DNA from: Verrucomicrobia bacterium UBA6982
GTDB taxonomy: Bacteria; Verrucomicrobiota; Kiritimatiellia; RFP12; UBA3636
DNA length: 64,000 bases
Direction: 5' to 3'
Assembly: GCA_002448475.1 (NCBI GenBank)
Contig: DJYI01000139.1
Coordinates: forward strand, 19,732-83,731
Shown: one piece after another, positions 47,890 through 61,448 of the stretch
Numbering within the stretch: position 1 is the stretch's first letter
Layout of the letters: the number at the start of each line of letters is the position of its first letter
Notes under the pieces: generated by a model
Seen by the model: only the letters and a program-made list of their open reading frames with translations
Told to the model about the DNA's origin: nothing
Database searches by the model: none
Position numbers and translations under genes: made by a program

Positions 47890-49121
47890 AAAGACACTTT
47901 GGCCAGAAGACCATAATAGCACCTTGCCTTTTTCTCCCACGTAAAATTTCTTTGAACATGTGAAACGGCCGATTTTGACATTTCCGAACGCAAACCCGGT
48001 TCACACAATCTTCGGAATGACTCCGCCATCTTCTCCACGACCTGTTCCTTAGGCCCAACGGATATCCGAAATCCAGCCGATTCCGGCACTTGCGTTGCTG
48101 GCCCACCCCAGTCCAAACATACAACAGGGAGTCCCGCCGCCATTCCTTCCAGACATGCCCAACCGCCAGAATCGTGCATACTTGGATGAACCAAAACGTC
48201 AGCGGAATGCAAATGGCGAAGTGCCACATCACGCGGAAGATTTCCGAGAATGCGAACATGATCGGAAACACCAAGCTTTTTGCAGAGCATCTGCAACTTG
48301 GCTCGCTCCGGTCCATCGCCAATCAATTCAAGTTCAGAATCATTGATGCCAGCTCGGGCGAACGCCTCGACAGCCAAAGCGTACCCTTTCCAGGCAACTA
48401 GTCGTCCCAAGCAAATAAAGCGAAGTCCCTTGTGAAAAACCTTTCCTGCGTCAAGACGCCGGATGTCGGCATTGGACAACGCGGACTCACCCAAGATGAA
48501 AACTTGTGATGAACTGCCACGCACCACACTGCATCTATCAGCAGACACTTTTGTCGTGGCTAGAACAATAGAAGCATTCTTCAGTGTCCCCCTTGTTCCG
48601 GGAGTCCATTCCGAGAAAAATCGGACCAATCCGCGAATTGTTTCAAAAAGACGACCTCGTATCGGCAGACAATTCCGAAGCTGTTTGGGGGTGAACTCAG
48701 CACCGCCGACGGGACCAAGCACATACGGTATCCCGGAATTTGCAAGGCAACTACGTCCCCAATACCTTACAAATGTCACGTGTTGGGCGGCATCAAACCT
48801 TTCCAGCTCATGCAAACGACGGACCTCCTTGCCGGCCATCGCTTGCCAGAACTGGTAGTGGAGCCTGATTTTCCACTCTGTCGGATTTCTCCACACATAG
48901 CGTGCAAAAGGAACTTCAAAAAAATGGAAACGGAGATTGTCCGCAACACGGCCAGCTTTGATTTCCTCTTCTATGTTCGAACGGCATTCCGATTGGGTAA
49001 GAACATGAACTTCGCAGAAAGCCGCCAACGCATTGGCAACGTTCCAACCTACGCCCGGCTCGGAACCGCGTCCTGGCCCACAGGCATAACTGGACAAAAG
49101 GATCTTCAAGCGTTTCGTCAT
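47862..49121 (-). CDS. Family 4 (GT-B) glycosyltransferase
   Basis: MTKRLKILLSSYACGPGRGSEPGVGWN... and ...CLEGMAAGLPVVCLDWGGPATQV... (EX7E-type). Confidence 0.7.
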   Translation of the reverse strand: MTKRLKILLSSYACGPGRGSEPGVGWNVANALAAFCEVHVLTQSECRSNIEEEIKAGRVADNLRFHFFEVPFARYVWRNPTEWKIRLHYQFWQAMAGKEVRRLHELERFDAAQHVTFVRYWGRSCLANSGIPYVLGPVGGAEFTPKQLRNCLPIRGRLFETIRGLVRFFSEWTPGTRGTLKNASIVLATTKVSADRCSVVRGSSSQVFILGESALSNADIRRLDAGKVFHKGLRFICLGRLVAWKGYALAVEAFARAGINDSELELIGDGPERAKLQMLCKKLGVSDHVRILGNLPRDVALRHLHSADVLVHPSMHDSGGWACLEGMAAGLPVVCLDWGGPATQVPESAGFRISVGPKEQVVEKMAESFRRLCEPGLRSEMSKSAVSHVQRNFTWEKKARCYYGLLAKVSFHGNREGPA

Positions 49122-50014
49122 GGTATTGATGGCCCGTGTGACGGATCTTGATCTTGCACGTCAGACGGGAACGATGAAACGGCATCATCTTTCCACCAAG
49201 CTCGAAAAGCGTGGTCGGTGATTCTCTTCTCCGGAGGAGGAGGAGTCATGTAATCGCCGTAAACAGAAGTCAGATACTCCTTCCACCCTGACATGACGCA
49301 TCGGGACTCTCCTTCAAAGGGAACTGTTGCCCATCCCGCATAAATGGAACTCGGAAAAATCTCCCGAATCCCGTACCCCCAAACTGCACAACCAACGAAT
49401 GGTGCTCCTTCAAACGATGTTTGGGACGCTTTCCTGCTGAACAACGGAAGAATCAACCGACTTGGAAGACGACGCACGGCCAACGGAATCAATTTGAAGG
49501 GGAGACAAAGCGAGAGAAACAACTGGCGCCGAAAGGACCGTTTTTTGTTGAATGGAGAGCAGTTCTGAAAAACAAGACACCCCCAAACCACTTTTTTCAT
49601 CCGAATGATTCGGCGAGGCGTTTCGTTATTGTCGGGAAACCCGTCCAAGGGGAAAACATCAAGGAAAACACCAAGTTGCAAATGTCGATATGAATCTTCG
49701 ATCAAGACGGTTCTTTCATCGCAGACTTTCGCAAAGGGGTAACAATACTTGCTGTCATTCTCATGGCAATGGAGCGCATAGCGGTCAGAACGGAACTCAC
49801 GGCAAAACCGTTCGTAATCGGGGCGTGGCATTGCAATGTCAATATCGTCATCCCAAGGAATAAAACCTTTGTGTCGGATTGCCCCGAGAAGGGTTCCACC
49901 ATACAGCGTGTAACGAAGTCCGTTTTTGACGCAGAAGGCATGAACCTCGGAAAGGATGCCTTTCTCAATGTTCTGAATCTCTTGTGTGGAGGAAATCGTC
50001 TTCATGTTCGTCAT
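49118..50014 (-). CDS. LicD-family phosphotransferase, copy 2
   Basis: ...STQEIQNIEKGILSEVHAFCVKNGLRYTLYGGTLLGAIRHKGFIPWDDDIDIAMPRPDYERF... aligns position by position with the pneumococcal LicD N-terminus. The start is the ATG at 50014 (MTNMKT), where the TAA stop of the upstream gene overlaps it by 1 nt. An in-frame ATG at 50074 is an alternative. Confidence 0.75.
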   Translation of the reverse strand: MTNMKTISSTQEIQNIEKGILSEVHAFCVKNGLRYTLYGGTLLGAIRHKGFIPWDDDIDIAMPRPDYERFCREFRSDRYALHCHENDSKYCYPFAKVCDERTVLIEDSYRHLQLGVFLDVFPLDGFPDNNETPRRIIRMKKVVWGCLVFQNCSPFNKKRSFRRQLFLSLCLPFKLIPLAVRRLPSRLILPLFSRKASQTSFEGAPFVGCAVWGYGIREIFPSSIYAGWATVPFEGESRCVMSGWKEYLTSVYGDYMTPPPPEKRITDHAFRAWWKDDAVSSFPSDVQDQDPSHGPSIP

Positions 50015-50862
50015 TAGCTCAAGTAGAGTTTGCCCTCGGTGAAAACACGACTGACAATCAGACAATGTCGCCATCGTCGTCCTATGCGCGCCAGAATGCG
50101 ATAAACGATACGCTCCCTTTTTTGAAGAAACCGAGGAAGTGGATAGTACGATCTTCGAATCTGATCATATTCGGCCCATCTGGTTTCTCTATACACGGTT
50201 GAAACGTTCGAGTCGTGAATCGCGAATGCTCCGATTACGCCGGGCACAAAGTGAAACCTATAACCGGCTTTCGCAAGCCGACAGTAGTATTCGCCGTCCA
50301 TGATGACCTTATAGGACGGATCAAGATAGTGTCCGGAATCAATCGCTCGACGGCGCCAAAAAGACGAACAGGAAGCAATCGTAACAGACGAAACGGCCAT
50401 GACAAAAAACGAGAACCTATGGGAATGCTTGACGCGAATCGGGCACCCATCTTCCGAAACGAAAAGAAAGTCGCCGTAAACAAAATCGGCCTTGGGGTGC
50501 TTTTCGAGGAAGTCGGCGACGAGGGAGAACTTGCCGGGAAGATAGTATTCGTCCGCGTTGAGCCAGGCGACAACGTCGCCCGTGGCGCGGCGAAGGCCCT
50601 TGTTGATCGCGTCGGTCTGGCCCTTGTCGGGCTCGGAAACGTAGGAAAAGGAATAGCGGCCGTCCTTCGCGGCCGGCTGCGCCGCCGCGGAGGTGGCCCA
50701 ATCCTTGAGGATCTGGACGGAGTCGTCGGTCGAGCCACCGTCTATGACGATGTGCTCAATCGCCGGTGCCCCCGGCGCGTCCGCCTGCGCGAGCACGCTT
50801 TCGAGCGCCTTCCTCAGGAAGCGCCCGTAATTGTAGTTCGGTGTAACGATGGAGAATTTCAT
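50014..50862 (-). CDS. Family 2 glycosyltransferase
   Basis: MKFSIVTPNYNYGRFLRKALESVLAQ...IVIDGGSTDDS... is a GT-A DxD N-domain. The start is the ATG at 50862, overlapping the upstream stop as ATGA. Confidence 0.7.
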   Translation of the reverse strand: MKFSIVTPNYNYGRFLRKALESVLAQADAPGAPAIEHIVIDGGSTDDSVQILKDWATSAAAQPAAKDGRYSFSYVSEPDKGQTDAINKGLRRATGDVVAWLNADEYYLPGKFSLVADFLEKHPKADFVYGDFLFVSEDGCPIRVKHSHRFSFFVMAVSSVTIASCSSFWRRRAIDSGHYLDPSYKVIMDGEYYCRLAKAGYRFHFVPGVIGAFAIHDSNVSTVYRETRWAEYDQIRRSYYPLPRFLQKRERIVYRILARIGRRWRHCLIVSRVFTEGKLYLS

Positions 50863-51380
50863 TGCTCGGGAGCCCCCGCCGACACGGGCGATTCGTCCGC
50901 GCCGCAAGGGATGGGGTTTCCGTCCAGCTCCCGCTGGGCGGCGAAAGCGATACGTTGGGCATCCAAGGCGTCGAAGAGGTGTTCGACGGACATTTCGTGA
51001 TAAGGGGAATACAGGAGAAGGATCGTTTCAAGAGGGGCGAACGCTTCAATCTCGCGAAACGAAAGCCCTGTCTTCCACTGGTATTGGGCAAGAGCCCATC
51101 CGGCCCAGAACTCCCGGCTCCGACCGACGACTCCCTTCGGTTTCTCGCGGCGGAATGGGACGCCTGCGTCATCGAGGATTTCCGCCGCGAGCTCCCATCC
51201 TGACTTTCCGCTCACGGTTCCGCTGAGTCCGTTTCCGAAGTCGTCCGAAACGTGCGAGGAAAGAAAGAGACGCCAGAAGTCCCGAAGCTCCATGCCGAAG
51301 AGATAGACCGCGCTCTCCAGCATCGATCCGAGGGCGAGCGAAGCGTCGGAGAGGTACAAGTCACTGTAGGCGGGGATCAT
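50859..51380 (-). CDS. Hypothetical protein, partner of the upstream DUF3990-like gene
   Basis: The start is the ATG at 51380 (MIPAYSDLYL...). It overlaps the upstream gene by 20 nt. I recognise no motif. Confidence 0.4.
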   Translation of the reverse strand: MIPAYSDLYLSDASLALGSMLESAVYLFGMELRDFWRLFLSSHVSDDFGNGLSGTVSGKSGWELAAEILDDAGVPFRREKPKGVVGRSREFWAGWALAQYQWKTGLSFREIEAFAPLETILLLYSPYHEMSVEHLFDALDAQRIAFAAQRELDGNPIPCGADESPVSAGAPEQ

Positions 51381-52032
51381 CCGGACGAATCCTTTCCTGA
51401 AGAATGTTGAGCATGTAGAGTCCGTCCGGATCGAACGGCTGGGCTCGCATCTCGCGGAACTCCCGCCGCGCGTCCGCGTCGCGCCGTTCCCGGGAATCGA
51501 GATAATCGGAGCGGCTTGCCGGTTCCGCCGAAACGAAGGAAAGAGCGCCGAACGCCTTCCGGCTCTTCGCGACGACTTGCAAACCGAGATTGCCGAGCCG
51601 GATCGCCCGCGAAAGGTTGGCATAGGAGAGGGCGCCTGAAAGAAACGTGCGCGCAAAGGAAAAGTAGCTGTCGTCCGCACGATAGCCGACGATGACATCG
51701 GCTTTTGAGTAATCGGGCAGGAACGTCGAAAGAAGATAGTCTCGCGCAGCGGAGGCGATGTCTCCATCGATGTCGAACGTGCGGTTCTCGAGCAGAACGG
51801 CGAGCCAGTGCAACACTGTGAACGACCCATCGGCCAGGTTCAAAACGTTCAATAGGGACAGGTCGAGTTCGTATTGATTGACGAACCCGTCGTGGAGAGG
51901 GGTGACGCTCCACTCGCCGGCAAGAGAACGATCCTCGGTGCAGTAGAACCCAAGCCCGTAGTCGTTGCTTCGCTTGCCGAAGCCGAACACGGGCCTTTCA
52001 ACAACACTCTCGGAACCGTGGAATATCGTCAT
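51361..52032 (-). CDS. DUF3990-like protein
   Basis: MTIFHGSESVVERPVFGFGKRSNDYGLGFYCTEDRSLAGEW resembles the DUF3990 N-terminal consensus (M.LYHGS...DFG.GFY.T....A..WA). The start is the ATG at 52032, preceded by GGAG. Confidence 0.45.
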   Translation of the reverse strand: MTIFHGSESVVERPVFGFGKRSNDYGLGFYCTEDRSLAGEWSVTPLHDGFVNQYELDLSLLNVLNLADGSFTVLHWLAVLLENRTFDIDGDIASAARDYLLSTFLPDYSKADVIVGYRADDSYFSFARTFLSGALSYANLSRAIRLGNLGLQVVAKSRKAFGALSFVSAEPASRSDYLDSRERRDADARREFREMRAQPFDPDGLYMLNILQERIRPDDPRLQ

Positions 52033-52430
52033 TCGGAGGCTCCAAGGGAAACCTCCCTGGACGACGTCCACAGGCCGTGGAGGTTGCAGTAGGCTGTGGC
52101 GTGGAGGGTGCCGGGGACGGTGAGGGAGACGCGGAAGCGGGCGGAGGGCGCGGTGGCGGCGGGGCCGGGCGCGTCGGAGAGGGAGGCGCCGTGCGCCGAG
52201 AAGTCCGCGCGGCCCAGCTCGATCGAGGTGCTGGCGCCTTCGGGGACGAAATGAAGCGCGATCCAGACGATGTGGTGCTGCACCGTGTTCGGATGCGCGA
52301 TCTCCTTGCCGACGTCGACCTCGACGTCGAAGGGGACGCCGGGCTTCACGGACGCCGGGGCGGAGATGACGGGGACGTGCTTTTCCGCCTTCCAATCGGC
52401 GGTCTTGACGGTGGAGGAAAGCGTGTTCAT
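52029..52430 (-). CDS. Superoxide reductase (1Fe-SOR, neelaredoxin/desulfoferrodoxin centre-II type), copy A
   Basis: The Fe-ligand motifs are all present: ...EKHVPVI..., ...HPNTVQHHIVWIAL... and ...CNLHGLW.... The start is the ATG at 52430 (MNTLSSTVKTADW). Confidence 0.75.
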   Translation of the reverse strand: MNTLSSTVKTADWKAEKHVPVISAPASVKPGVPFDVEVDVGKEIAHPNTVQHHIVWIALHFVPEGASTSIELGRADFSAHGASLSDAPGPAATAPSARFRVSLTVPGTLHATAYCNLHGLWTSSREVSLGASE

Positions 52431-52522
52431 TTTTGGATTGTCACCCCTCGTCGGAGCATTTGCCGCCCCGGCGGCGGCAGGGGGTAGAGGTTGATGGTCG
52501 GATGCGTCAAAGGGATGGCGGA

Positions 52523-52551
52523 ATTCTAGCATACTTGAAAAAAAGTTGCAA
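52523..52551 (-). promoter_or_regulatory. Putative sigma70-type promoter of SOR copy A
   Basis: On the minus strand, TTGCAA (-35, 52546-52551), then a 17-nt spacer, then TAGAAT (-10, 52523-52528). The block is conserved upstream of copy B (54755-54782, with a 16-nt spacer). A 13-bp direct repeat CCGGCGGTCGGCC lies just upstream and occurs twice. Confidence 0.4.
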
Positions 52552-52607
52552 CCGGCGGTCGGCCCCTGCCGAACAGCGGGCCGCCCGGCGGTCGGCCCCC
52601 ATCAAGC

Positions 52608-52760
52608 GTCGTCGTTCACTTGGGCGAGAACACTTTCAAGCGCATTCCGGAGGAAGCGCCCGTAGCTGTAGTTCGGAGTGACGATGGAGAATCTCATTGC
52701 GCTGCGGTCTTGACGGTGGAGGAGAGGGTGCTCATGGCGCGCATTCTAGCAGGGAAGGAG
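52608..52760 (-). pseudogene. Chimeric gene remnant: SOR 5' end (13 codons, MSTLSSTVKTAAQ*) joined by an ATGA junction to a GT2 5' end (about 30 codons, MRFSIVTPNYSYGRFLRNALESVLAQVNDDA*), plus a fragment of the SOR -10 region
   Basis: 52625-52700 is about 85% identical to 50790-50865, the 5' end of the GT2 gene and its junction with the DUF3990-partner gene. 52703-52737 resembles the SOR start region 52396-52430. Confidence 0.5.
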
Positions 52761-52793
52761 GCCCGGCGGCGCAACCGGGGGCGGATCGAGAAG

Positions 52794-54095
52794 TCACGGG
52801 CGGAGGGTCGAGAGGGGGCAGACGAGGATACCGTCCTCGGGACGGCGGTAGGCGATGTCGCCTTCGGCGACGACAATCATGCGGAAGGCCGGAGGGGGCA
52901 TGCGGGTCGTGTCGATCTTGGATGCTAGGGATGTAAGGGCGGCGACGCCCTTGGCGATCAGGGAGTCGCCGCCCGTCTTGATCTCGATCAGGCCGTAGTG
53001 CCCGTTTTCGAGGCGCAGCACGGCGTCGCACTCCAAGCCGCTTTTGTCATGGTAGTGGCACAGCGTACCGCCGAGGGCGTCGGCGCAGGTTCGCAGGTCG
53101 CGGATGGCCATGGTCTCGAAGAACAGGCCGAAGGTCGGCATGTCGTTCATGAGTTCGGCCGGGCCCACGCCGAGCGCTGCGGCGGCGATCGAAGGATCGG
53201 AGAAATAGCGCGTGTCCGTCGTCCGGATCGGCGTCTTGCAGCGCAGGTTCGGACACCAGGCCTCGAGATCGTCCGTCGCGAAGATCTTCCGCAGTGCCTT
53301 CAGGTAGGCGTACACGGTGTCCTCCGTCAGGGTGTCGACGTCATTGGCCTTCATGTCATCGCGGATGGCGGCCGCGGACGACTGCGTTCCCTGGAGCCGG
53401 GCCAGGCTACGCATAAGGCGCCGGACCCGGCCGGGATCGCGCAGGGTGCCGTCGACCCGCGAAACGTCGCTGTCGCAGATTGCCGCGAAATACTCCTTCG
53501 CCGGGCCGCGCGCGGCGCTCCCGGACAAGCCGAGCGCGCCCGGCCATCCCCCTCGGCACAGCAGTTCGCAAATGTCCTCGAGATGCCGATCGTTCTTCGC
53601 GCCGGTCGGATCCTCTCCGGCAAACAGACCGGAGAAGGAAACCGAGCCCGTGGACTCGCCGCTCTCCCAAAGGCTCATGGGGCGCATGGACAAGCGAGCG
53701 ATGCGGCCCGTTCCCGTATGGCGGAGGGTCCGGTTCTTTTCGTCCGCTTCGTCCACCGCCGGCGGAACGGCGCTGCCCGTCAGGATGAACATGCCCCGCC
53801 CGCCCTCGTCGACGGCAAACCGGACGGCGTCCCAGAGAAGCGGCACTTCCTGCCACTCGTCCAGAAGATGGGGCGAAGCGCCCTCCAACACCTTGTCGGG
53901 GCGGGCCTCCGCCAGAATCCGGTCGGTCCTTCCCTTGACCGGATCGCCGAAACAGACCTCGCTTTTCGCGATTTGCCGGGCCGTTGTCGTCTTCCCGCAC
54001 CATTTCGGACCCTGCACGAGAACGGCACCCATGTACGACAACTTTTCCGCGAGAAGAATGTCCGCAACGCGTTTTCTGTAGGTTTCCGCTTTCAC
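52794..54095 (-). CDS. AAA+ ATPase of the DUF4143-containing (AAA_14-like) family
   Basis: Walker A is VLVQGPKWCGKTTTARQ, and there is a C-terminal DUF4143-like region. The GTG start at 54095 is preceded on the minus strand by TTGACA, 17 nt, then CAGAAT. Confidence 0.65.
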   Translation of the reverse strand: MKAETYRKRVADILLAEKLSYMGAVLVQGPKWCGKTTTARQIAKSEVCFGDPVKGRTDRILAEARPDKVLEGASPHLLDEWQEVPLLWDAVRFAVDEGGRGMFILTGSAVPPAVDEADEKNRTLRHTGTGRIARLSMRPMSLWESGESTGSVSFSGLFAGEDPTGAKNDRHLEDICELLCRGGWPGALGLSGSAARGPAKEYFAAICDSDVSRVDGTLRDPGRVRRLMRSLARLQGTQSSAAAIRDDMKANDVDTLTEDTVYAYLKALRKIFATDDLEAWCPNLRCKTPIRTTDTRYFSDPSIAAAALGVGPAELMNDMPTFGLFFETMAIRDLRTCADALGGTLCHYHDKSGLECDAVLRLENGHYGLIEIKTGGDSLIAKGVAALTSLASKIDTTRMPPPAFRMIVVAEGDIAYRRPEDGILVCPLSTLRP

Positions 54096-54134
54096 AAGGG
54101 TGGATTCTGGGTCATTTTCCTGAATTTGTCAAGC

Positions 54135-54249
54135 CATTCGGTAATTTGGCGAATTTTCGTTAGGCAATCTGGCGCCATTCCGTTAGGCAATCTGGCGCCA
54201 TTCCGTTAGGTAATTTGGCGACGTTTCGTTAGGTAATTTGGCGACAGAT
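54135..54249. repeat. Tandem array of a 23-bp unit CGTTAGG(C/T)AAT(C/T)TGGCG(C/A)C...: four full copies plus one degenerate copy
   Basis: Read directly. The full copies are at 54158-54180, 54181-54203, 54204-54226 and 54227-54249, with a degenerate copy at 54135-54157. The array sits immediately upstream of the putative -35 of the DUF4143 ATPase gene. Confidence 0.8.
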
Positions 54250-54264: not shown

Positions 54265-54657
54265 CTAATCCACCGCGAGCGCCGAGGCGCTTGTCCACAG
54301 GCCGTGGAGGTTGCAGTAGGCTGTGGCGTGAAGGGTGCCTGGGGCGGAGATGCAGACGCGGAAGCGGGCGGAGGGCGCGGTGGCGGCGGGGCCGGACGCG
54401 TCGGAGAGGGAGGCGCCGTGCGCCGAGAAGTCCGCGCGGCCGAGCTCGATCGAGGTGCTGGTGCCTTCGGGGACGAAATGAAGCGCAATCCAGACGATGT
54501 GGTGCTGTGCCGTGTTCGGATGCGGAATCTCCTTGCCGACGTCGACCTCGACGTCGAAGGGGACGCCGGGCTTCACTGACGCCGTGGCGGAGATGACGGG
54601 GACGTGCTTTTCCGCCTTCCAGTCGGCGGTCTTGACGGTGGAGGAAAGTGTGTTCAT
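54265..54657 (-). CDS. Superoxide reductase (1Fe-SOR), copy B
   Basis: Nearly identical to copy A (MNTLSSTVKTADWKAEKHVPVISATASVKPGVPFDVEVDVGKEIPHPNTAQHHIVWI...CNLHGLW). Confidence 0.75.
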   Translation of the reverse strand: MNTLSSTVKTADWKAEKHVPVISATASVKPGVPFDVEVDVGKEIPHPNTAQHHIVWIALHFVPEGTSTSIELGRADFSAHGASLSDASGPAATAPSARFRVCISAPGTLHATAYCNLHGLWTSASALAVD

Positions 54658-54829
54658 TTTTGGATTGCCACCGCTACGCTCGGCGTGACATTCGCCGCCC
54701 CGGCGGCTGAAAGGTGTAGAGGTTGATGGTCGGATGCGTCAAAGGGATGGCGGAATTCTAGCATACTTGAAAAAAGTTGCAACCGGCGGTCGGCCCCTGC
54801 CGAACAGCGGGCCGCCCGGCGGTCGGCCA

Positions 54830-56050
54830 CTACCGAACTAGAGGGAGCCGCTTTGATACGGTGCAGCGGACCATGGTGGGGGAGAGATCGAACTTCGGTG
54901 GTGGGTTGCCGTTGTCTGCCAAATGCTGGCGGGCGAGACCGATGCCGCGTCCAAATTGCTGGACGTATCCCCAGGTCTTGAGAATGGTGGCTAGGTTCGG
55001 GTTGCGATAGTCGGCATAGCCGGGAACGCCGAAGGTCTCCGACGTGACGGTTCCATACGGTCCGCCGGGGTTGGAAATTTCCACGCGATCGTCAAACCAG
55101 TCCACGCGGACCGGCGCATTGGTGTGTTCATAGGTCCGATGCAGGACGGCGTTGTAGAGCAATTGCTGCAGGGCGACCATCGGATAGTCGGGCCGAACAA
55201 TATGCGTCGGACCGGATTCCACGTCCCACGCGATGCGGTTGTGGGCCGCCATTTTCGCCTCTGCGGTCTGAAGCATGGCCTTGAGCGGGCCGCGGCAGTC
55301 CAGTTCGTCAACGACCGGTGCCGCGCGATCCGTCCCGGAGAAGCGGAGGAACTGGACCCTGGCTCCGGGGAGATGCCATTGGGGATCCTTTCCCAGGGCC
55401 AGCAACCCGGAAAGCGTTGGTCGCGTATCCTCCGGCGAAACGATCATCCGGCAGGAGGCAAGTTTCTCTTCGTAGCTGCGGCCGTTCGCGGAGAGGATCT
55501 CCGGCGCAAACGCTACCGGGAGAAACTCGTCCTCGAACGCCGCACGGGAGAGGTCGGCCAACGAGGCCGCCACAACCGGACAGAGGTCGAACGGAAGGTT
55601 CTTCCAACGCCTTTTCTCGGTGAGCGTCCGCTCCTCCTGAACTGTGGCGACGCCACGACGCGGCCCGATCCGAATCCATGTGCGCCCGTCGAACTTCACG
55701 GGCGGAATGTCCGACGGCTCGACAACGACAACGACCATCTCGGCACCGAGAAGAATCCGTTTCTCGACAAGGATCGACGGAGACGGTAGAATGCGACCAT
55801 CGGTCTTCATGTCCGAAACGTCGCGCAAAAGCTCGTCCGTCACGGCCAAGCCGGACGGCGAACCGTCGTCGTTCGCTCCGATGAAGAGGACGCCGGGGTG
55901 ATTGTGGCCCGGGAGGTCGTTCGCAAACGCGCATACCGCCTCCCGCGCCTTTGTCGCGACATCGCGCGAGAAGGAAGACTTCCTCTCGGCGGCGTCGGAC
56001 TCAAGGTCCCTGAGACGGGCCAGCAGTTCTGCGTCGGACAGTGAACTCAT
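54830..56050 (-). CDS. AlbA_2 (Schlafen-like divergent AAA) + HATPase_c_4 domain protein, usually annotated as a putative transcriptional regulator or 'RecG-like'
   Basis: MSSLSDAELLARLRDLESDAAERKSSFS...AVCAFANDLPGHNHPGVLFIGANDDG... is the AlbA_2-type N-domain. The C-terminus ...LLYNAVLHRTYEHTNAPVRVDWFDDRVEISNPGGPYGTV... is HATPase_c_4-like. The start is the ATG at 56050, 28 nt after the SNF2 gene. The ORF's 249 upstream codons overlap the SNF2 gene and are not expected to be translated. Confidence 0.6.
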   Translation of the reverse strand: MSSLSDAELLARLRDLESDAAERKSSFSRDVATKAREAVCAFANDLPGHNHPGVLFIGANDDGSPSGLAVTDELLRDVSDMKTDGRILPSPSILVEKRILLGAEMVVVVVEPSDIPPVKFDGRTWIRIGPRRGVATVQEERTLTEKRRWKNLPFDLCPVVAASLADLSRAAFEDEFLPVAFAPEILSANGRSYEEKLASCRMIVSPEDTRPTLSGLLALGKDPQWHLPGARVQFLRFSGTDRAAPVVDELDCRGPLKAMLQTAEAKMAAHNRIAWDVESGPTHIVRPDYPMVALQQLLYNAVLHRTYEHTNAPVRVDWFDDRVEISNPGGPYGTVTSETFGVPGYADYRNPNLATILKTWGYVQQFGRGIGLARQHLADNGNPPPKFDLSPTMVRCTVSKRLPLVR

Positions 56051-56078
56051 GCGGGGCGGATAATAGCAGAAGTGGGCG

Positions 56079-58901
56079 CTACTGCCAAGAAAGGCGACAG
56101 TTTTCGACGAAGGCTCGGGCGGAGCGGATCGGATCCGGGATGTCGCGGGAAAACACAGACGCCTCCAGAATGCGCTCAAATTCGGGGCGAAGATCAAGTT
56201 CGGCGACGGCGGACTGGAAGTCCTCGGAAGAAACGGGCGCGACGGAATCCGACTCCGGAACTGCGCCGAGCGCTTGGCGCGCGGCGCCTGCGGCGAGTGC
56301 CACGGCCTTGCGCAGCGCGGCCTGGCCTTCCCCCGCGAACCCGCCGCCAACAAGAAGTTCTCCCATTTTGAGGAGGCGTTCGGTTTCGGAGTCGGCCCTT
56401 CTGGCAGCCGCGACGCGGCGCGCGGCCGCAGCCTTGGCCGCATCGGCCGGTTCGCGGACAAACACCGGCTTCGCGACATCGGAGCGGAACTGGATGACTC
56501 CCAAATCGCGGAGCCGTTCGATGATCGCCCAGGTTTCCGGGGAGACAATCTCCACAGCAGAGTCAGGCAGCGCCGTTCCGTGGGTTCCGGCGATCCGTCG
56601 GGCCGCCTCGGTCTGGTCGATTCCGGAGCCGACGAAGACGGCGGCGGTCGGCGCACGGTCGGCGGCGTCCCCGGAACGGCCGAGCAGGAGGCGCTCGACG
56701 CCGGGACATTCCGCCGCGATTTCCGCGCGAAGCCGCTCGTCCGGCGGGATGACCGGCTCGGTTCGAGGCGAAGGATCGGGGCGGACCTTGACAGCATCGC
56801 CCATCACGGAGGCAAGGCGCTGCATGAAGGCGCTTTCCTTCCTGCGTCCCTTAGCCTCCTCGGCGTCAAGTCGCTCGAAGTCGGCGGCGTCGCCCTGCGC
56901 GTCAAGAACGAAATCGGCCAGCCCCTGCTTGAAATCTAGCGTCTGGAGCATACGCTCCTCTATCGTTCCGGCGGCGACCATGTTCACGACAAGGACATCG
57001 CGCTTCTGGTGCTTGCGCCAGGCGCGGGCAATCCGCTGTTCGAGGCGGGCCGGATTCCACGGAAGATCGAGGTTTACGACAACGCTCGCTACCTGAAGGT
57101 TCAGGCCCACGCCGCCGGACTCCGAGGCGAGGAACACCCGGCACTTCGGATCCTCCTTGAAGCGACGAATTTCCTCCCGGCGGCGCCTCTGCGGAATCTG
57201 GCCGGTGTGGAGAGCGAAGCCGATGTCCTTCGCCTCGAGCCTGGCGGCGAGCAGATCAAGCATGCGGGTCCATTCGGAGAACACAATGACCTTGCGAGAA
57301 GGTTCGTCGGCGAAGATGTCGTCAAGGACCTCCTCGAATTCGTCCAGTTTTGGCGAGTCGCGGATTTCGGGATCCATGATATAGCAGGAATCGCAAAGCA
57401 TTCTCATCATCGCAAGTTCCCTCTGGAGACGCTCCTGCTCCTTCGGGGAAAGCGGACGCTTCCTGCTTAGCGCGTAAAGGGTCGCGACCTCGTGCAGGTG
57501 CTCGTCGTAGCGACGCGACTGCTCCGGCGTCATCGAAGTCTTGTAGGTTTTCGACATGCGGCCTGGAAGTTCGTCCTCGACTGCTGACTTGCGACGGCGT
57601 AAAAGGATGCCCGAAACCGCGTCATGGAGTTCCGCGAGATCCTTCATGCCCGTGTTGTGGCCATCTTTGTCAAAGGAGTAGAAGCGCCTGTTGAAGCGAA
57701 AGAGACTGCCGAAAAGGGTAGGATCGACGAATTCGACCAGAGAATAGAGCTCGTCAATGCGGTTCTCCAGCGGCGTGCCGGTCAGGACGAAGGCGTATGG
57801 GGAGGACAGGGCCTTCAAGTTGCGGGCGGTCTTTGTCTTCCAGTTCTTGATGCGCTGGGCCTCGTCGAGAATGACAAGGTCGGGCTTCAACGTGTCGTTG
57901 ATCTCCTTCCAGTCGCGGATTGCCTGCTCGTAGTTCGCGACAAGAAAGAACGCCGCCGTTTTCGCGTAACGTTCGAGACGTGCGGCGCGAGCGCCGAAGA
58001 GCAGTTCGACCGTCGCATCGGAAAAGAGCCGGATCTGATCGTCCCATTCGCCTTTGAGAGAGGCCGGCACGATTACGAGAACATGGCGGACATCGGCGGC
58101 CTCGCGAAGAAGAAGCGCCGCCGCGATCGCCTGAACGGTCTTGCCGAGGCCCATTTCGTCGGCAAGGATGGCGCGCCCCTTGCGGGCGAGATGCAAGGCG
58201 CCGTCCTGCTGATATGGGAAGAGAGATTTCTTCAGGAACGGCCAGCGGGTGTCGGTGCCCTGATCGTCGCGGAATTCGTCGACGGCTCGAACGAGCGCCT
58301 CGCGGCGTGTCAGGTCCGCCAGGTGGCGTCGAATTTCATGCGAAACGCGAACAGAACCTGGACGGACGGCATTCAACCTGTCGCAGGCGCGGAGAAAAAC
58401 GTCCAGACCGGCGGCGGAGGCGTCGCGGAGCGTCCCGTCGGCGGCGCAATGGCGCGCCAGGGCGCGCCGCGTCTCCGGCGGCAGGGTAGGGGACAGGATG
58501 AGAACCGGGACATGCCGTGGGCGGCGTATGAACACCTCTGCGGCTGTCGATTGGCGGGACTTTCCGCACTTGCGCGCGGCAACCTTCAGGACACGTTCGA
58601 TGTGCTTGCATGTGCCGAGACCGTTCTTGACGAAATCCGGGCAATTGCATGTATTGATCGGTTCGTCAAGCGAGCGCAGTTCGACTCTGTAGGCGGCGGT
58701 TCGGTGATCTGCGGCCGGGTGAGACACCTCGTAGATGCCAAACCCGCCGGACACGTCGACGGCCCTGACCTTCATGGGCTCGGCCGCCGCCCGTTCCCGC
58801 CGCTTGCGTATTTCCTCCGCGTCCGTAGTCGCCCAGCTATCGAGCTTGGGCACCTTGGCGCGGGAGGGCGATGCTCCGTTTTTCAGTTGCTGTGTCTTCA
58901 T
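56079..58901 (-). CDS. SNF2-family helicase with an N-terminal SWIM zinc finger (YwqA/RapA-like)
   Basis: The SWIM finger is CNCPDFVKNGLGTCKHIERV. The SNF2 motifs include ...ILADEMGLGKTVQAIAA... (motif I), ...DLVILDEAQRIKN... (DEAQ box, motif II) and ...VFLASESGGVGLNLQVASVVVNLDLPWNPARLEQRIARAWRKHQ... (motifs V-VI). Confidence 0.8.
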   Translation of the reverse strand: MKTQQLKNGASPSRAKVPKLDSWATTDAEEIRKRRERAAAEPMKVRAVDVSGGFGIYEVSHPAADHRTAAYRVELRSLDEPINTCNCPDFVKNGLGTCKHIERVLKVAARKCGKSRQSTAAEVFIRRPRHVPVLILSPTLPPETRRALARHCAADGTLRDASAAGLDVFLRACDRLNAVRPGSVRVSHEIRRHLADLTRREALVRAVDEFRDDQGTDTRWPFLKKSLFPYQQDGALHLARKGRAILADEMGLGKTVQAIAAALLLREAADVRHVLVIVPASLKGEWDDQIRLFSDATVELLFGARAARLERYAKTAAFFLVANYEQAIRDWKEINDTLKPDLVILDEAQRIKNWKTKTARNLKALSSPYAFVLTGTPLENRIDELYSLVEFVDPTLFGSLFRFNRRFYSFDKDGHNTGMKDLAELHDAVSGILLRRRKSAVEDELPGRMSKTYKTSMTPEQSRRYDEHLHEVATLYALSRKRPLSPKEQERLQRELAMMRMLCDSCYIMDPEIRDSPKLDEFEEVLDDIFADEPSRKVIVFSEWTRMLDLLAARLEAKDIGFALHTGQIPQRRRREEIRRFKEDPKCRVFLASESGGVGLNLQVASVVVNLDLPWNPARLEQRIARAWRKHQKRDVLVVNMVAAGTIEERMLQTLDFKQGLADFVLDAQGDAADFERLDAEEAKGRRKESAFMQRLASVMGDAVKVRPDPSPRTEPVIPPDERLRAEIAAECPGVERLLLGRSGDAADRAPTAAVFVGSGIDQTEAARRIAGTHGTALPDSAVEIVSPETWAIIERLRDLGVIQFRSDVAKPVFVREPADAAKAAAARRVAAARRADSETERLLKMGELLVGGGFAGEGQAALRKAVALAAGAARQALGAVPESDSVAPVSSEDFQSAVAELDLRPEFERILEASVFSRDIPDPIRSARAFVENCRLSWQ

Positions 58902-59038
58902 TGTCTGTGGCCGATTATTGACAATTGCGGTCTAAGCGCAAGGAAAATCGTGAATCTGGGTGGGATAAAAAAAGCGTAGTTGCGAATTTTACGTATCGAA
59001 CTTTACGCAACGCAAAAGAAGTGCTAGTATTCGGCCTC

Positions 59039-60166
59039 ATGAAACCGAACAACCCCTTTCTTGTGCGCGGATACGCCGGTCCGGAATGGTTCTGTGATCG
59101 CGAGAACGAAACAGCAAAACTCGTTTCGGCGTTTGAAAACGACCGTGACGTGACTCTTGTGGCCCCTCGGCGATACGGGAAAACAGGACTTATCAGGAAC
59201 GCTTTCCAATGTCTAGACGATCAGATTCCCAAAATTTACATTGATGTGTTCCAAACACGAACTCTGGCCGACTTCACGGCTCTGTTTGCTTCCGCCGTGG
59301 CCGATGCAATGGACACAAAGTTCGAGCGGGCGGTTGCCGCCGCAGCGTCCTTTTTCAGGAGCTGTCGTCCATCGATTACCGTTGGACCTGACGGAAATCC
59401 AAAGATTTCGTTCGACATTTCTCCTTCGCGGACTGAAGAGACGCTTTCCGAAGCATTCGCCTATTTGGCAAAACGCGACAAACGCGCCATTATCGCCATT
59501 GATGAATTTCAACAGGTGCTGGACTATCCCGGCCAGAGCGCCGAAGCGCTTCTGCGATCACAAATTCAGTTTGTTCCGCACATTCGTTTCGTCTTTGCCG
59601 GATCACGCCAACATCTCATGCGAGAAATGTTTCTGTCGCCCAAGCACCCGTTCTATCAAAGCACTGACATCCTTTCCCTGAAGCCAATTGACAAAGACAT
59701 CTATTATTCCTTCGCGGCCCGACACTTCCGCGCCGGGGCAATGAAACTGGAGAAATCAGCGTTTGATGCCATCTATGACCGATTCGACGGAGTGACCTGG
59801 TACCTGCAAATGGTTCTTAATCGTTTATGGGAGGGTCGTCGGGATGTCATGGGTCCCGATGCCGTGGAACCGGTCATTTCGGAAATCATAGAATCGAGAT
59901 CTATGGAATACCATGATCTTCTCCTCTCCCAGACGTCGGCTTCTCAAGCTGTTTTGCGCGCCATGGCGGCGGAAAAAATCGTGGCGGAACCGACGTCCGG
60001 CCAGTTCGTGGCGCATTGTGGACTCCGTGCGACATCCACCGTTGCGTCCGCATTAAAGTCGCTTCGAGATCGAGATCTCGCATATCACACACCTAGGGGA
60101 TGGATTGTCTATGACCGCTTTTTTGGAGAATGGCTGTCTCGGTTCGCTCCCCGCCTCCGCCAATGA
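59039..60166 (+). CDS. Arch_ATPase-type AAA+ ATPase with a C-terminal DUF234-like winged-helix domain
   Basis: ...FLVRGYAGPEWFCDRENETAKL... then Walker A LVAPRRYGKTGL and Walker B AIIAIDEFQQV. The start is the ATG at 59039. It sits in a lower-GC segment. Confidence 0.6.
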   Translation: MKPNNPFLVRGYAGPEWFCDRENETAKLVSAFENDRDVTLVAPRRYGKTGLIRNAFQCLDDQIPKIYIDVFQTRTLADFTALFASAVADAMDTKFERAVAAAASFFRSCRPSITVGPDGNPKISFDISPSRTEETLSEAFAYLAKRDKRAIIAIDEFQQVLDYPGQSAEALLRSQIQFVPHIRFVFAGSRQHLMREMFLSPKHPFYQSTDILSLKPIDKDIYYSFAARHFRAGAMKLEKSAFDAIYDRFDGVTWYLQMVLNRLWEGRRDVMGPDAVEPVISEIIESRSMEYHDLLLSQTSASQAVLRAMAAEKIVAEPTSGQFVAHCGLRATSTVASALKSLRDRDLAYHTPRGWIVYDRFFGEWLSRFAPRLRQ

Positions 60167-60188
60167 AGCGGAGGACGATTCCATGAGA

Positions 60189-61448
60189 TCATGTGGAAGG
60201 AGTGGCGCCGCACGAAGCGTAGATTGCCAGCAGGCGCGCCAGGTTGCGGTCCGGGCGGCAGTCCGAGGTCTCGAAGGCGGCGCGGGCGGCAGTGCCCATG
60301 CGACGAAGTTCGGCGGTGTCGGCGAGGAGGGAGCGAAGGGAGGAGGCGAGCGCGGCGGGGTCGCCGGAGGGGAATAGCCGACCCGTAACGCCGTCCTCGA
60401 CGATTGTGCTCTGCGACACGGAATCAGAAACAAGAGCAGGAACGCCATTTGACATGGCTTCAAGAACCGTCGTCGAGAACTGTTCGTAACAGCGCGACGG
60501 GAGAACGAGCAACTGCGCGACGGCGAGCTCGCGGAGGGCGTCTTCGCGGGGAAGGGGACCGAGGAAGCGGACGGAGTCTACGATGCCGAGGGAGGAGGCA
60601 AGGGCGCGAAGGGATTCATCCTCCGGGCCGGAGCCGACGATGGAAAGGCAACAAGGGTGACGTGGAATGCCGTTGCACAGCAGCGCCCAGGCGCGGAGGA
60701 GGACGTCGACGCCCTTTTCCGGGGAAAGACGACCAAGATAGATTACATGGGCGGCGGGCCCGCCTTCGCTTTTAGCATGCCGCTTTTCGCATGCCGCTTG
60801 CGTCGTGATATTTGTGGCGGTCGGTATTGTCGCAGCAACTGCGTTCGGCTTCACGACGATTTTACTCGCCGGCAGACCCGCCTGGATGAATTTCTCGCGG
60901 GCGAATTCCGTCAGGGCGATGTAACGCGTCACCTTGCGGCGCCAGGTGCCGAGCAGGCGATGGACGATGAGCATCGCGGCCAGCGTGACGGACTGGGAAA
61001 GCGAGCCGCGGTAGCAGCGGCGACAAACGCCGCGCAGCGGCGAACGTCCAAGACAGCTTTCGCAGATCCGGCCGCCGCGGAAAAGGTAGCCGTTCAGGCA
61101 AGTTAGACGGTAGTTGTGGAGTGTCTGGACGACAGGCACGCCTTCTCTGGCGGCGGCGTAGTAGATCGACGGCGAAATCAGCGGAAAGGTATTGTGGCAG
61201 TGAACGACGTCCGGCTTTTCGCGTCGAATGAGTTCCCGGACCTCGCGAAACGTCCGTTGGTTCCATATAGTTCGGATCGCCAGCGAAATTTTCGCTGCCA
61301 GTCCTCCGTTGTCATGTATGTCGGCGTTTGTCTTCTCGTAGCGGACGACCTTGTGCCCGGCATCTTCGAGCATCCGGCACTCGGATTCGAAGACGCTGTC
61401 CTCGCCACCGCGAATGCGATATCGGTTGTGGGCCACGAGAATCTTCAT
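60189..61448 (-). CDS. Family 4 (GT-B) glycosyltransferase
   Basis: MKILVAHNRYRIRGGEDSVF... (a GT4 N-domain) and ...EQFSTTVLEAMSNGVPALVSD... (EX7E). Confidence 0.7.
   Translation of the reverse strand: MKILVAHNRYRIRGGEDSVFESECRMLEDAGHKVVRYEKTNADIHDNGGLAAKISLAIRTIWNQRTFREVRELIRREKPDVVHCHNTFPLISPSIYYAAAREGVPVVQTLHNYRLTCLNGYLFRGGRICESCLGRSPLRGVCRRCYRGSLSQSVTLAAMLIVHRLLGTWRRKVTRYIALTEFAREKFIQAGLPASKIVVKPNAVAATIPTATNITTQAACEKRHAKSEGGPAAHVIYLGRLSPEKGVDVLLRAWALLCNGIPRHPCCLSIVGSGPEDESLRALASSLGIVDSVRFLGPLPREDALRELAVAQLLVLPSRCYEQFSTTVLEAMSNGVPALVSDSVSQSTIVEDGVTGRLFPSGDPAALASSLRSLLADTAELRRMGTAARAAFETSDCRPDRNLARLLAIYASCGATPST

Follow-up and report, generated by a model that had tools for sequence, protein, structure and literature searches.

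A multi-event rearrangement scar of superoxide reductase and glycosyltransferase gene heads in a Kiritimatiellia-like bacterium

A stretch of about 175 bases (~52779..52602) in the window, that is, the whole 64,000-nucleotide piece of contig DJYI01000139.1 that was analysed, is a real, reproducible rearrangement scar that arose in several events and is ordinary in kind. It lies on the minus strand, as do all genes of the region. With a probability of roughly 70%, it is best described as non-coding debris of two gene heads, consisting of a superoxide reductase (SOR) promoter with 11 SOR codons and of about 33 codons of a family 2 glycosyltransferase (GT2), left by multiple events at an insertion hotspot. 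It is, in other words, a pseudogene-like scar, and its annotation as two small genes is to be avoided. The scar marks a busy site of insertion and exchange between a conserved SOR gene and the first GT2 gene of a polysaccharide locus. This site varies from strain to strain in its candidate anti-phage cargo and in the downstream polysaccharide gene sets, with the SOR gene being duplicated and homogenised by gene conversion. Knowledge of it helps to read strain variation in poorly known gut Kiritimatiellia-like bacteria.

Read 5' to 3' on the minus strand, the locus comprises an AlbA_2/HATPase_c_4 gene (stop at 54830), repeat B with SOR_B, 23-nt tandem repeats (TR), an ATPase gene, the remnant, and repeat A with SOR_A, followed by a DUF3990 gene, the gene of a 173-aa protein, GT2, LicD, GT4, and the remaining polysaccharide locus (Table 1). 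The identity between repeats A and B begins at 52597/54828. Repeat A opens with a hairpin (52594..52549; fold of -39.9 kcal/mol, z -2.6) and a T-run (52545..52539), then carries a promoter found by a promoter scan (TTGCAA-17-TGcTAGAAT, 52551..52523) and a leader of ~92 nt, while repeat B has TTGCAA-16-TGcTAGAAT and a leader of ~95 nt. The ATPase block holds 4.7 copies of the 23-nt repeat (54246..54140) and a promoter of its own (TTGACA-17-CAGAAT, 54132..54104). Genes overlap by ATGA at both SOR_A/DUF3990 and 173-aa/GT2. The DUF3990 protein matches the PADLOC model PDC-M42A (2e-33), the 173-aa protein has no Pfam match, and an SNF2 helicase encoded upstream matches ZorD/DpdE-like PADLOC models. 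DUF3990 is a member of the Pfam ADP-ribosyltransferase clan (PMC7955679).

Table 1. Features of the remnant and its surroundings, in window coordinates.
Feature	Coordinates	Strand	Remarks
p'	52743..52779	-	Native SOR promoter, displaced copy; similar to those of the L088, L084 and L089 SOR genes
s'	52694..52735	-	SOR stump: ATG and 11 SOR codons, then AQ and stop; minus-strand ORF MSTLSSTVKTAAQ plus stop (52735..52694)
J2	52698..52703		Joint of SOR stump and GT2 stump, 1-6 nt upstream of the GT2 ATG
g'	52602..52697	-	GT2 stump, 31 codons and stop; minus-strand ORF MRFSIVTPNYSYGRFLRNALESVLAQVNDDA plus stop (52697..52602)
J1	52597..52601		Joint of GT2 stump (codon ~33) and start of the 0.53-kb SOR repeat
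Repeat A	52066..52597	-	Hairpin, promoter, leader and most of SOR_A; 94-95% identical to 54293-54828
SOR_A	CDS 52430..52029	-	PF01880 match
Repeat B	54293..54828	-	Hairpin, promoter, leader and most of SOR_B; starts 2 nt past the AlbA_2 stop
SOR_B	CDS 54657..54265	-	PF01880 match
ATPase cargo block	52794..54246	-	PADLOC PDC-S01, 2.7e-52
DUF4143/AAA_14 ATPase	54095..52794	-
DUF3990 cargo pair	50859..52032	-	DUF3990 52032..51361; 173-aa protein 51380..50859
Present full-length GT2	50014..50862	-	First ~85 nt (50778-50862) are the head resembled by g'
LicD	50074..49118	-

The initial annotation had read the remnant as a chimera of an SOR start and a GT2 start, and both homologies are present. Without gaps, g' aligns with the GT2 head at 83% over 88 nt (52613-52700 against 50778-50865). 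By blastn in the 64-kb window, 85.7% identity is obtained over 77 nt (52624-52700 against 50789-50865; E 2e-13), which is well above chance and bears out the roughly 30 GT2 codons at about 85% nucleotide identity that had been proposed. Over codons 1-27, g' shares 82.7% of its nucleotides with the present GT2 of the window and 74-89% with the GT2 heads of five related contigs (L084, L085, L086, L088, and L089). On the SOR side, both SOR genes resemble 52704-52735 over their first 32 nt, at 91% (52399-52430) and 88% (54626-54657), with a 20-nt exact core (E 1e-5), and s' is identical to the SOR of L085 at 27 of 27 nt. The two ORFs overlap in the sequence ATGA. The first, s', is not a superoxide reductase gene, as it keeps 11 SOR codons only and the PF01880 domain with its iron ligands is absent. 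The second, g', is a GT2 (PF00535) pseudogene fragment by homology to the GT2 N-terminus, and is too short to function, with 31 codons against the 282-583 aa of intact homologues. It ends ahead of the EHIVIDGGSTD segment, and the DxD motif and catalytic region are missing.

That the similarity arose by chance, or that the remnant is an assembly chimera formed across the 0.53-kb SOR repeats, is hardly credible. The sequence is GC-rich, and such repeats do break or cycle short-read assemblies: contig L001 ends in the 5' end of the ATPase gene soon after SOR_B, and the ends of L087 are identical. Breaks or cycles of short-read assemblies at the SOR-GT2 site should be expected. Nevertheless, the E value of the g' match speaks against chance, both J1 and J2 lie outside the repeat, and assemblies of different samples (an 83-kb scaffold, a 39-kb contig, and a 32-kb contig) agree on the order. 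The arrangement of the remnant recurs in independent metagenome assemblies (L002/L092 at 99.985% identity, L094 at 100%, L093 at 98.3%, and L087 at 96.8%) and is, thus, not an assembly artefact of the window.

The promoter copy p' carries a -35 element TTGCGC (52774..52769; CCGGTTGCGC) and an extended -10 element TGCTAGAAT (52751..52743), located 7 nt from the ATG. Its spacer measures 20 nt in the window vs 17 nt in L087 and L093, the extra CGC being specific to the strain of the window. Promoters of the same layout precede the SOR genes of three relatives, whose SOR proteins are 81-86% identical: TTGCCA-17-TGCTAGAAT-8 nt-ATG in L088 (88.7% identical to the remnant over 53 nt, E 5e-10), TTGCCC-17-TGCTAGAAT-7 nt-ATG in L084 (87% over 54 nt), and a promoter of that type in L089 (84.6% over 52 nt). 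The two full SOR genes of the window, unlike p', have a leader of 88-93 nt. Given this difference between a short -10-to-ATG distance and the long leader of its neighbours, p' keeps the promoter type of the relatives and not that of the adjacent SOR genes. A fragment resembling an SOR -10 element had been noted earlier at this place; the element is there, but it belongs to a whole native short-spacer SOR promoter rather than to a piece of the neighbouring long-leader promoters. The position of the -10 element only 7-8 nt from the ATG, together with the lack of a Shine-Dalgarno sequence, suggests a leaderless transcript.

Relatives of this locus consist of metagenome contigs only, many of them short. 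A scan of GTDB species representatives with the SOR gave a best match of 57% identity and no usable orthologous locus, and the source names of homologous proteins, at 61-69% identity for the SOR and ~75% for the ATPase, point to a probably Kiritimatiellia-like bacterium. In L085, a GT2::LicD fusion starts 4 nt after SOR, and in L084 the order is SOR-23S_rRNA_IVP-GT2::LicD. L088 and L089 show GT4-SOR-23-nt repeats-ATPase-85 nt-intact GT2 (a 583-aa fusion and a 301-aa protein, respectively), their SOR-repeats-ATPase part being 88% identical in nucleotides to the SOR_B-repeats-ATPase part of the window, and L083 shows SOR-DUF3990-172aa. Judged from these gene orders, the basic layout of the lineage is SOR, a short spacer X, GT2(::LicD), and polysaccharide genes. 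On the same footing, the SOR-GT2 gap is a hotspot for small cargo, such as the DUF4143 ATPase, the DUF3990 pair, a PDDEXK_3 gene, and the 23S_rRNA_IVP gene. The earlier reading of the remnant as a recombination footprint is upheld. The accompanying proposal that a DUF3990/SOR/ATPase segment had been inserted into, or deleted from, a glycosyltransferase operon stands in part: to judge from L085, L088, L089, and L083, both the ATPase and the DUF3990 pair were inserted between SOR and the first GT2 of the operon. An intact second GT2 gene in related loci had been given as an example of the ancestral arrangement, but a tandem second intact GT2 is seen in no relative.

The two joints have different strain distributions, which is at odds with the single fusion event first envisaged. 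J1 is carried by the window, L087, L093, and L100, and by the more distant L086 and L091, that is, by at least three strain lineages (L091 was located by scanning JGI metagenomes with the joint sequence). J2 is carried by the window, L087, and L093 only, with its last 7 nt present at the contig end of L100. Its limits are set on one side by L086 and L091, where homology begins 1 nt before the ATG, and on the other by the SOR homology, which stops at ACCGC. In L086 and L091, g' is preceded not by p'-s' but by X, the native SOR-GT2 spacer ending in GAAATAGGAAAATG; the start of X and the post-SOR spacer of L088 agree in 26 of 28 nt, and none of 1000 shuffles was as good. The g' of L086 is a hybrid. 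It follows the window-G type over nt 1-47 (46/47) and the g' type over nt 48-99, with 48/52 matches to the g' of the window and 50/52 to that of L093. GT2 heads, hence, recombine with each other. The idea that J2 is younger than J1, drawn from the absence of J2 in L086 and L091, was withdrawn, since the stump of these contigs is recombinant.

The junction between the two stumps had been taken to be the same caATGA stop/start arrangement as at the start of the present GT2. GCAATGA is indeed found at both 52695-52701 and 50860-50866, but the match does not argue for common descent. ATGA is made up of the GT2 ATG and a second codon starting with A (AAA or AGA), L084 has TCAATGAAATTC without gene overlap, and in L086, L091, and L097 the stump or gene is preceded by AAAATG. 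As ATGA is inherent to the GT2 start and TCAATGAAATTC occurs in L084, the shared junction is weak evidence. It is, with the adjacency of an SOR-DUF3990-173aa-GT2 unit to the remnant and the position of the s' stop within ATGA, just as that of the 173-aa gene's stop, what could be cited for a single deletion or recombination within one such unit, joining SOR codon 11 to the end of the 173-aa gene with ATGA kept. Such an event is unlikely. Beyond the ATGA of GT2 itself, only GCA is shared, 6 of the 10 upstream bases match in GC-rich DNA, and TCAATGA stands in L084 without an overlapping gene. The allele of g' at codons 28-30 differs from the neighbouring GT2, and J1 is left unexplained. Moreover, since X ends in GAAATAGGAAAATG right before GT2 in L097, the TR-ATPase-p'-s' block of L093 sits exactly where X meets the GT2 ATG, as an insertion at this boundary would.

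The GT2 stump differs in allele from the GT2 gene now downstream. Its last codons (AQVND) agree at 10 of 18 nt with the g'' allele of L086/L097, a second type of GT2 stump, vs 6 of 18 nt with the GT2 of the window. With end codons of another allele, g' was not copied from the GT2 now in place. The break of similarity at 50778/52613 corresponds in part to a polymorphic loop of the GT2 gene; g' runs ~15 nt past 52613 to the repeat boundary at 52597, and further on no significant similarity to any GT2 is found. The order SOR-TR-ATPase-intact GT2 in L088/L089 leads g' to be read as the remains of a post-ATPase GT2, so that g' is probably the stump of a GT2 formerly located 3' of the ATPase and cut at codon ~33. 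A search with a 42-aa query, built by fusing g' to the g'' tail of L086, returned no candidates, and no full-length GT2 of the g' allele was found by it. Three further relics were considered and rejected as not significant: a trace of s' between ATPase and GT2 in L088 (equalled by 177 of 1000 shuffles), an origin of the SOR-repeat hairpin from a variable-loop insertion of an L088-type GT2 (759/1000), and the L086 y segment as a relic of the SOR repeat (811/1000). With the latter two discarded, J1 is a true break at codon ~33.

An exact look-up of the 173-aa protein retrieved 23 contigs, with at least four arrangements 3' of its gene (three types of polysaccharide locus and a PDDEXK_3 insertion), three of them with extra GT2 stumps. 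From the SNF2 gene as far as GT2 codon ~28, L093 and the window share 98-99% identity; the order in L093 is SOR_B-X-TR-ATPase-p'-s'-g'|P-SOR_A-DUF3990-173aa-g'', followed by ORF6N and a FnlA-type polysaccharide locus. Its g'' consists of ~45 codons of the L088-type GT2 allele (significant by shuffles), and a g'' of that length lies 3' of the 173-aa gene in L086, L091, and L097 as well. L095 continues from 173aa-GT2 into a third gene set (Hexapep, GLF, and LicD), while L097 and L099 have 173aa-g''-X-[PDDEXK_3 gene]-X-GT2 head, with X duplicated around PDDEXK_3. Homology with the window ends at 50778 (GT2 codon ~28) in L093, L097, L099, and L086. Between the window and L086, identity reaches 99.4% for the DUF3990 gene and 100% for the 173-aa gene, vs ~89.5% for both flanking GT2 heads. 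Near-identical cargo between GT2 heads diverged by ~10% is a sign that the cargo was exchanged recently. Gene conversion is indicated by the mosaic nature of the SOR copies: the leader of L087 is A-type and its coding region B-type, and the SOR_A of the window is B-like at its centre.

From the homologies, joints, strain distribution, hybrid stump, and substitution pattern, an order of events and a recombination mechanism can be proposed. Heads of neighbouring genes recur at the ends or flanks of cargo pieces. Cargo-bearing pieces may have been joined by recombination with homology at one end and an illegitimate junction at the other, or else by tandem duplication (then deletion), and these joining events would carry along or cut off the heads of flanking genes. 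J1 would have formed when the resident GT2 was cut at codon ~33, where the [hairpin/promoter-SOR_A-DUF3990-173aa-GT2...] unit begins. At J2, the SOR head ending 1-6 nt before the GT2 ATG could have hitch-hiked on the ATPase fragment or been left by deletion of a duplicated SOR. Later, unequal homologous recombination and gene conversion would use as substrates the ~90-nt GT2 heads and the SOR repeats of 0.53 kb; in this way, modules may be shuffled and the downstream polysaccharide locus swapped. As to tandem duplication, J1 joins GT2 codon ~33 with the SOR repeat's start, L091 has a head-to-tail joint (173aa-g''-X-g'|P-SOR), and the two ends of L087 are identical; since the cargo of the window's two units differs, a simple duplication in situ does not suffice. 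Also insufficient is a single Campbell-type crossover of a circle [P-SOR_A-DUF3990-173aa-GT2 head] within the GT2 head. This model predicts identity up to the crossover and was rejected: the right-hand GT2 heads are 89.4% identical between the window and L086, with differences from nt 12 onward.

No Pfam match to a transposase or integrase was obtained among the called genes from ~10 kb upstream to ~10 kb downstream of SOR_A, and no inverted repeats were found to flank 52600-52780 or the cargo. A transposable element, MITE, or integron cassette was discarded on these grounds and because the direct repeats, of 88-537 nt, are much longer than target-site duplications. In a more far-reaching interpretation, the SOR and GT2 heads would constitute a recombination scaffold, with portable homology arms and a promoter, by which candidate defence cargo and whole polysaccharide loci could be stacked, amplified, lost, and exchanged at one site without a dedicated recombinase. 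Within it, p'-s' would once have been a leaderless promoter that was captured together with a coupling mini-ORF and re-powered GT2 after the ATPase insertion. This is quite unlikely as a whole. Signs of ongoing activity that would suit it are the 2.2-kb unit of L087, the hybrid stump of L086, and the 100% identical cargo between flanks diverged by ~10%. No genome was found with either ATPase-p-full SOR or p'-s'-full GT2.

Capsule and O-antigen loci switch by recombination in conserved flanks. Likewise, at least three polysaccharide sets follow the SOR_A-DUF3990-173aa-GT2 head in strains that are otherwise 98-100% identical; the difference is that the left crossover zone lies here inside the first ~28 GT2 codons and leaves stumps, not clean replacements. 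Defence-gene integration hotspots are flanked by core genes. The present slot resembles them in hosting different candidate cargo (PDC-S01, PDC-M42A, and the ZorD/DpdE-like SNF2 helicase), but it has no integrase or mobile-element backbone, and the flanking core gene, SOR, is duplicated along with the cargo.

Another likeness is offered by the Rhs, CDI, and T6SS effector-immunity arrays, for which a sequential displacement model with orphan modules has been described (PMC5361080). There, as at this site, modules enter beside a conserved anchor, and displaced pieces persist with a short copy of the conserved head, accumulate, and recombine. The anchors are here the SOR gene and the first ~90 nt of GT2. 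The stumps are 5' heads upstream of an intact gene, in contrast to 3' tips downstream of it, and the cargo consists of candidate defence genes and whole polysaccharide loci instead of toxin tips. In homology-facilitated illegitimate recombination, one end is homologous and the other illegitimate (PMC3240628). This process has been proposed for the sequential displacement of T6SS/Rhs modules (PMC5361080, where de Vries & Wackernagel 2002 and Prudhomme et al. 2002 are cited for it). It yields insertions that truncate resident genes and leave donor-gene stumps, to which g'', s', and g' may be compared; s' and g'' are stumps at the 3' edges of cargo and follow this pattern. For the present locus it is a candidate process, and tandem duplication with deletion would fit equally well.

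The stump differs among close strains only by nonsynonymous changes (0 synonymous and 4 nonsynonymous between the window and L087, 0/4 between the window and L093, and 0/2 between L087 and L093), based on just five distinct events, and the position of its stop codon is the same in all strains. One substitution turns the conserved TPNY motif into TPIY. Between the window and L086, g' is 89.6% identical vs 97.7-100% for the adjacent promoter region and cargo, a divergence 3-4 times faster than that of the adjacent cargo. The nonsynonymous-only changes and the 3-nt insertion in the p' spacer point to decay, as far as so few substitutions can indicate.

The g' stop lies 5 nt before the strong hairpin and T-run. 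A functional element could be envisaged here, with p' driving a leaderless 13-codon ORF and an ATGA-coupled 31-codon ORF as a leader or attenuator ahead of the hairpin and SOR_A promoter, or with p' having formerly been a captured GT2 promoter after the ATPase insertion had separated GT2 from the SOR promoter. Several features would agree with such a role: in L087 and L093, the -35 and extended -10 elements of p' are consensus-like and 17 nt apart; the 7 nt from -10 to ATG suit a leaderless start, as in L084, L088, and L089; both ORFs and the stop position are kept in four strain variants; and that stop is placed as just described. The role is nevertheless very improbable. The g' changes are solely nonsynonymous, even in TPNY, the p' spacer of the window has grown to 20 nt, and g' is kept without p'-s' in L086 and L091. 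The hairpin belongs to the SOR repeat and follows the AlbA_2 gene in repeat B as well, which makes it a terminator of general use rather than a dedicated attenuator; an alternative antiterminator pairing was not seen. For the same reasons, namely a leader ORF that varies nonsynonymously and a repeat-borne hairpin that also stands 3' of the unrelated AlbA_2 gene, a leader-peptide attenuator was rejected. With the remnant regarded as debris, its present activity is most likely limited, at most, to a short, useless transcript ending at the hairpin; the intact p' in L087 and L093 and the kept g' stop may reflect residual expression or use.

A further observation concerns L087, in which identical 592-nt ends enclose a 2200-nt unit, as would be produced by tandem amplification, an excised circle, or an assembler cycle.

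The gap between the superoxide reductase (SOR) genes and GT2, the glycosyltransferase gene that heads the polysaccharide operon, holds a DUF3990 gene and its partner, a 173-aa gene (Table). Between the window and L086, a related contig of a more distant lineage, DUF3990 is 99.4% identical and the 173-aa gene 100% identical; the flanking GT2 heads differ by ~10.5%, and the identity falls sharply, exactly at the 173-aa stop and GT2 start. The near-identity of the pair, together with this abrupt border, suggests a very recent lateral exchange of cargo.

Coordinates of the features discussed
Feature	Contig and positions	Remarks
GT2 (282 aa) and LicD (318 aa)	window 49118-50862	separate ORFs, different frames, 61-nt overlap
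DUF3990 pair	window 50859-52032; L086 995-2168
SOR direct repeat (0.53 kb)	window 52066-52597, 54293-54828	each copy an intact SOR gene with promoter and leader
DUF4143/AAA_14 ATPase gene	window 52794-54095
23-nt tandem repeats	window 54140-54246; L088 1385-1455; L089 1140-1190; L093 3190-3250	consensus GGTAATTTGGCGACATTCCGTTA (plus strand)
5.4-kb block	window 54830-60189	between GT4 gene and SOR_B
Contig with identical ends	L087 1-2792	2792 nt
In-frame GT2 insertion	L088 2960-3050; L089 2700-2790	intact post-ATPase GT2
Additional SOR/GT2 cargo	L084 4165-4560; L085 1145-1534; L097 1572-2000	in relatives

The DUF4143/AAA_14 ATPase, which matches the candidate defence family PDC-S01 (PADLOC), has more than 7,900 homologues at E<1e-60 among a maximum of 8,000 candidates. 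Many of these, at 75-78% identity, lie on ~1.5 kb contigs, as would be expected of a multi-copy gene that breaks assemblies. The 23-nt tandem repeats abut its promoter (TTGACA-17-CAGAAT) directly upstream, and could be operator or iteron-like sites. Their copy number varies, from 4.7 in the window and one fewer in L087, a close strain, to ~2-3 in L088, L089 and L093.

The two copies of the SOR repeat are 94-95% identical in the window, with 100% identity over their opening 59 nt and a 5-nt insertion in the leader of copy B. Set against L086 and L087, they are mosaics of the kind that gene conversion typically leaves, and recombination between them would either remove the ATPase unit or amplify it. 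L087 begins and ends with the same 592 nt (100% identity), which defines a 2200-nt unit composed of the 3' part of the GT2 stump (g'), the SOR promoter region, SOR, repeats, ATPase, displaced promoter (p'), SOR stump (s') and g'; this unit could reflect amplification in tandem, a circle that was excised, or a cycle made by the assembler.

In L084, L085 and L088, relatives with ancestral-type layouts, the GT2 and LicD domains form a single fusion protein of 557-583 aa, and the separate ORFs of the window could have arisen through a frameshift that split the gene, or could represent a true two-gene variant. The ~30-codon GT2 insertion of L088 and L089, located after codon 27 (…AQVESGLDRSGASSSSEHTNDAGRAECDPRSFRVEHIVIDG), includes GC-rich palindromic segments and sits in the variable loop where the GT2 stumps are cut.

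Relatives also carry other small, selfish-looking elements in this SOR/GT2 slot. Among them are 23S_rRNA_IVP genes, which have AT-rich repeated motifs (TTGTGAACA, CAATTGAC) on either side, and a PDDEXK_3 gene lying between duplicate copies of the native SOR-GT2 spacer. Upstream of SOR_B, the 5.4-kb block resembles a further defence-like island that was inserted. It contains an ATPase_2 gene in reverse orientation, a SNF2 helicase of 940 aa (ZorD/DpdE-like, PADLOC) and an AlbA_2/HATPase_c_4 gene; in L084, L088 and L089, SOR directly follows a GT4-like gene.
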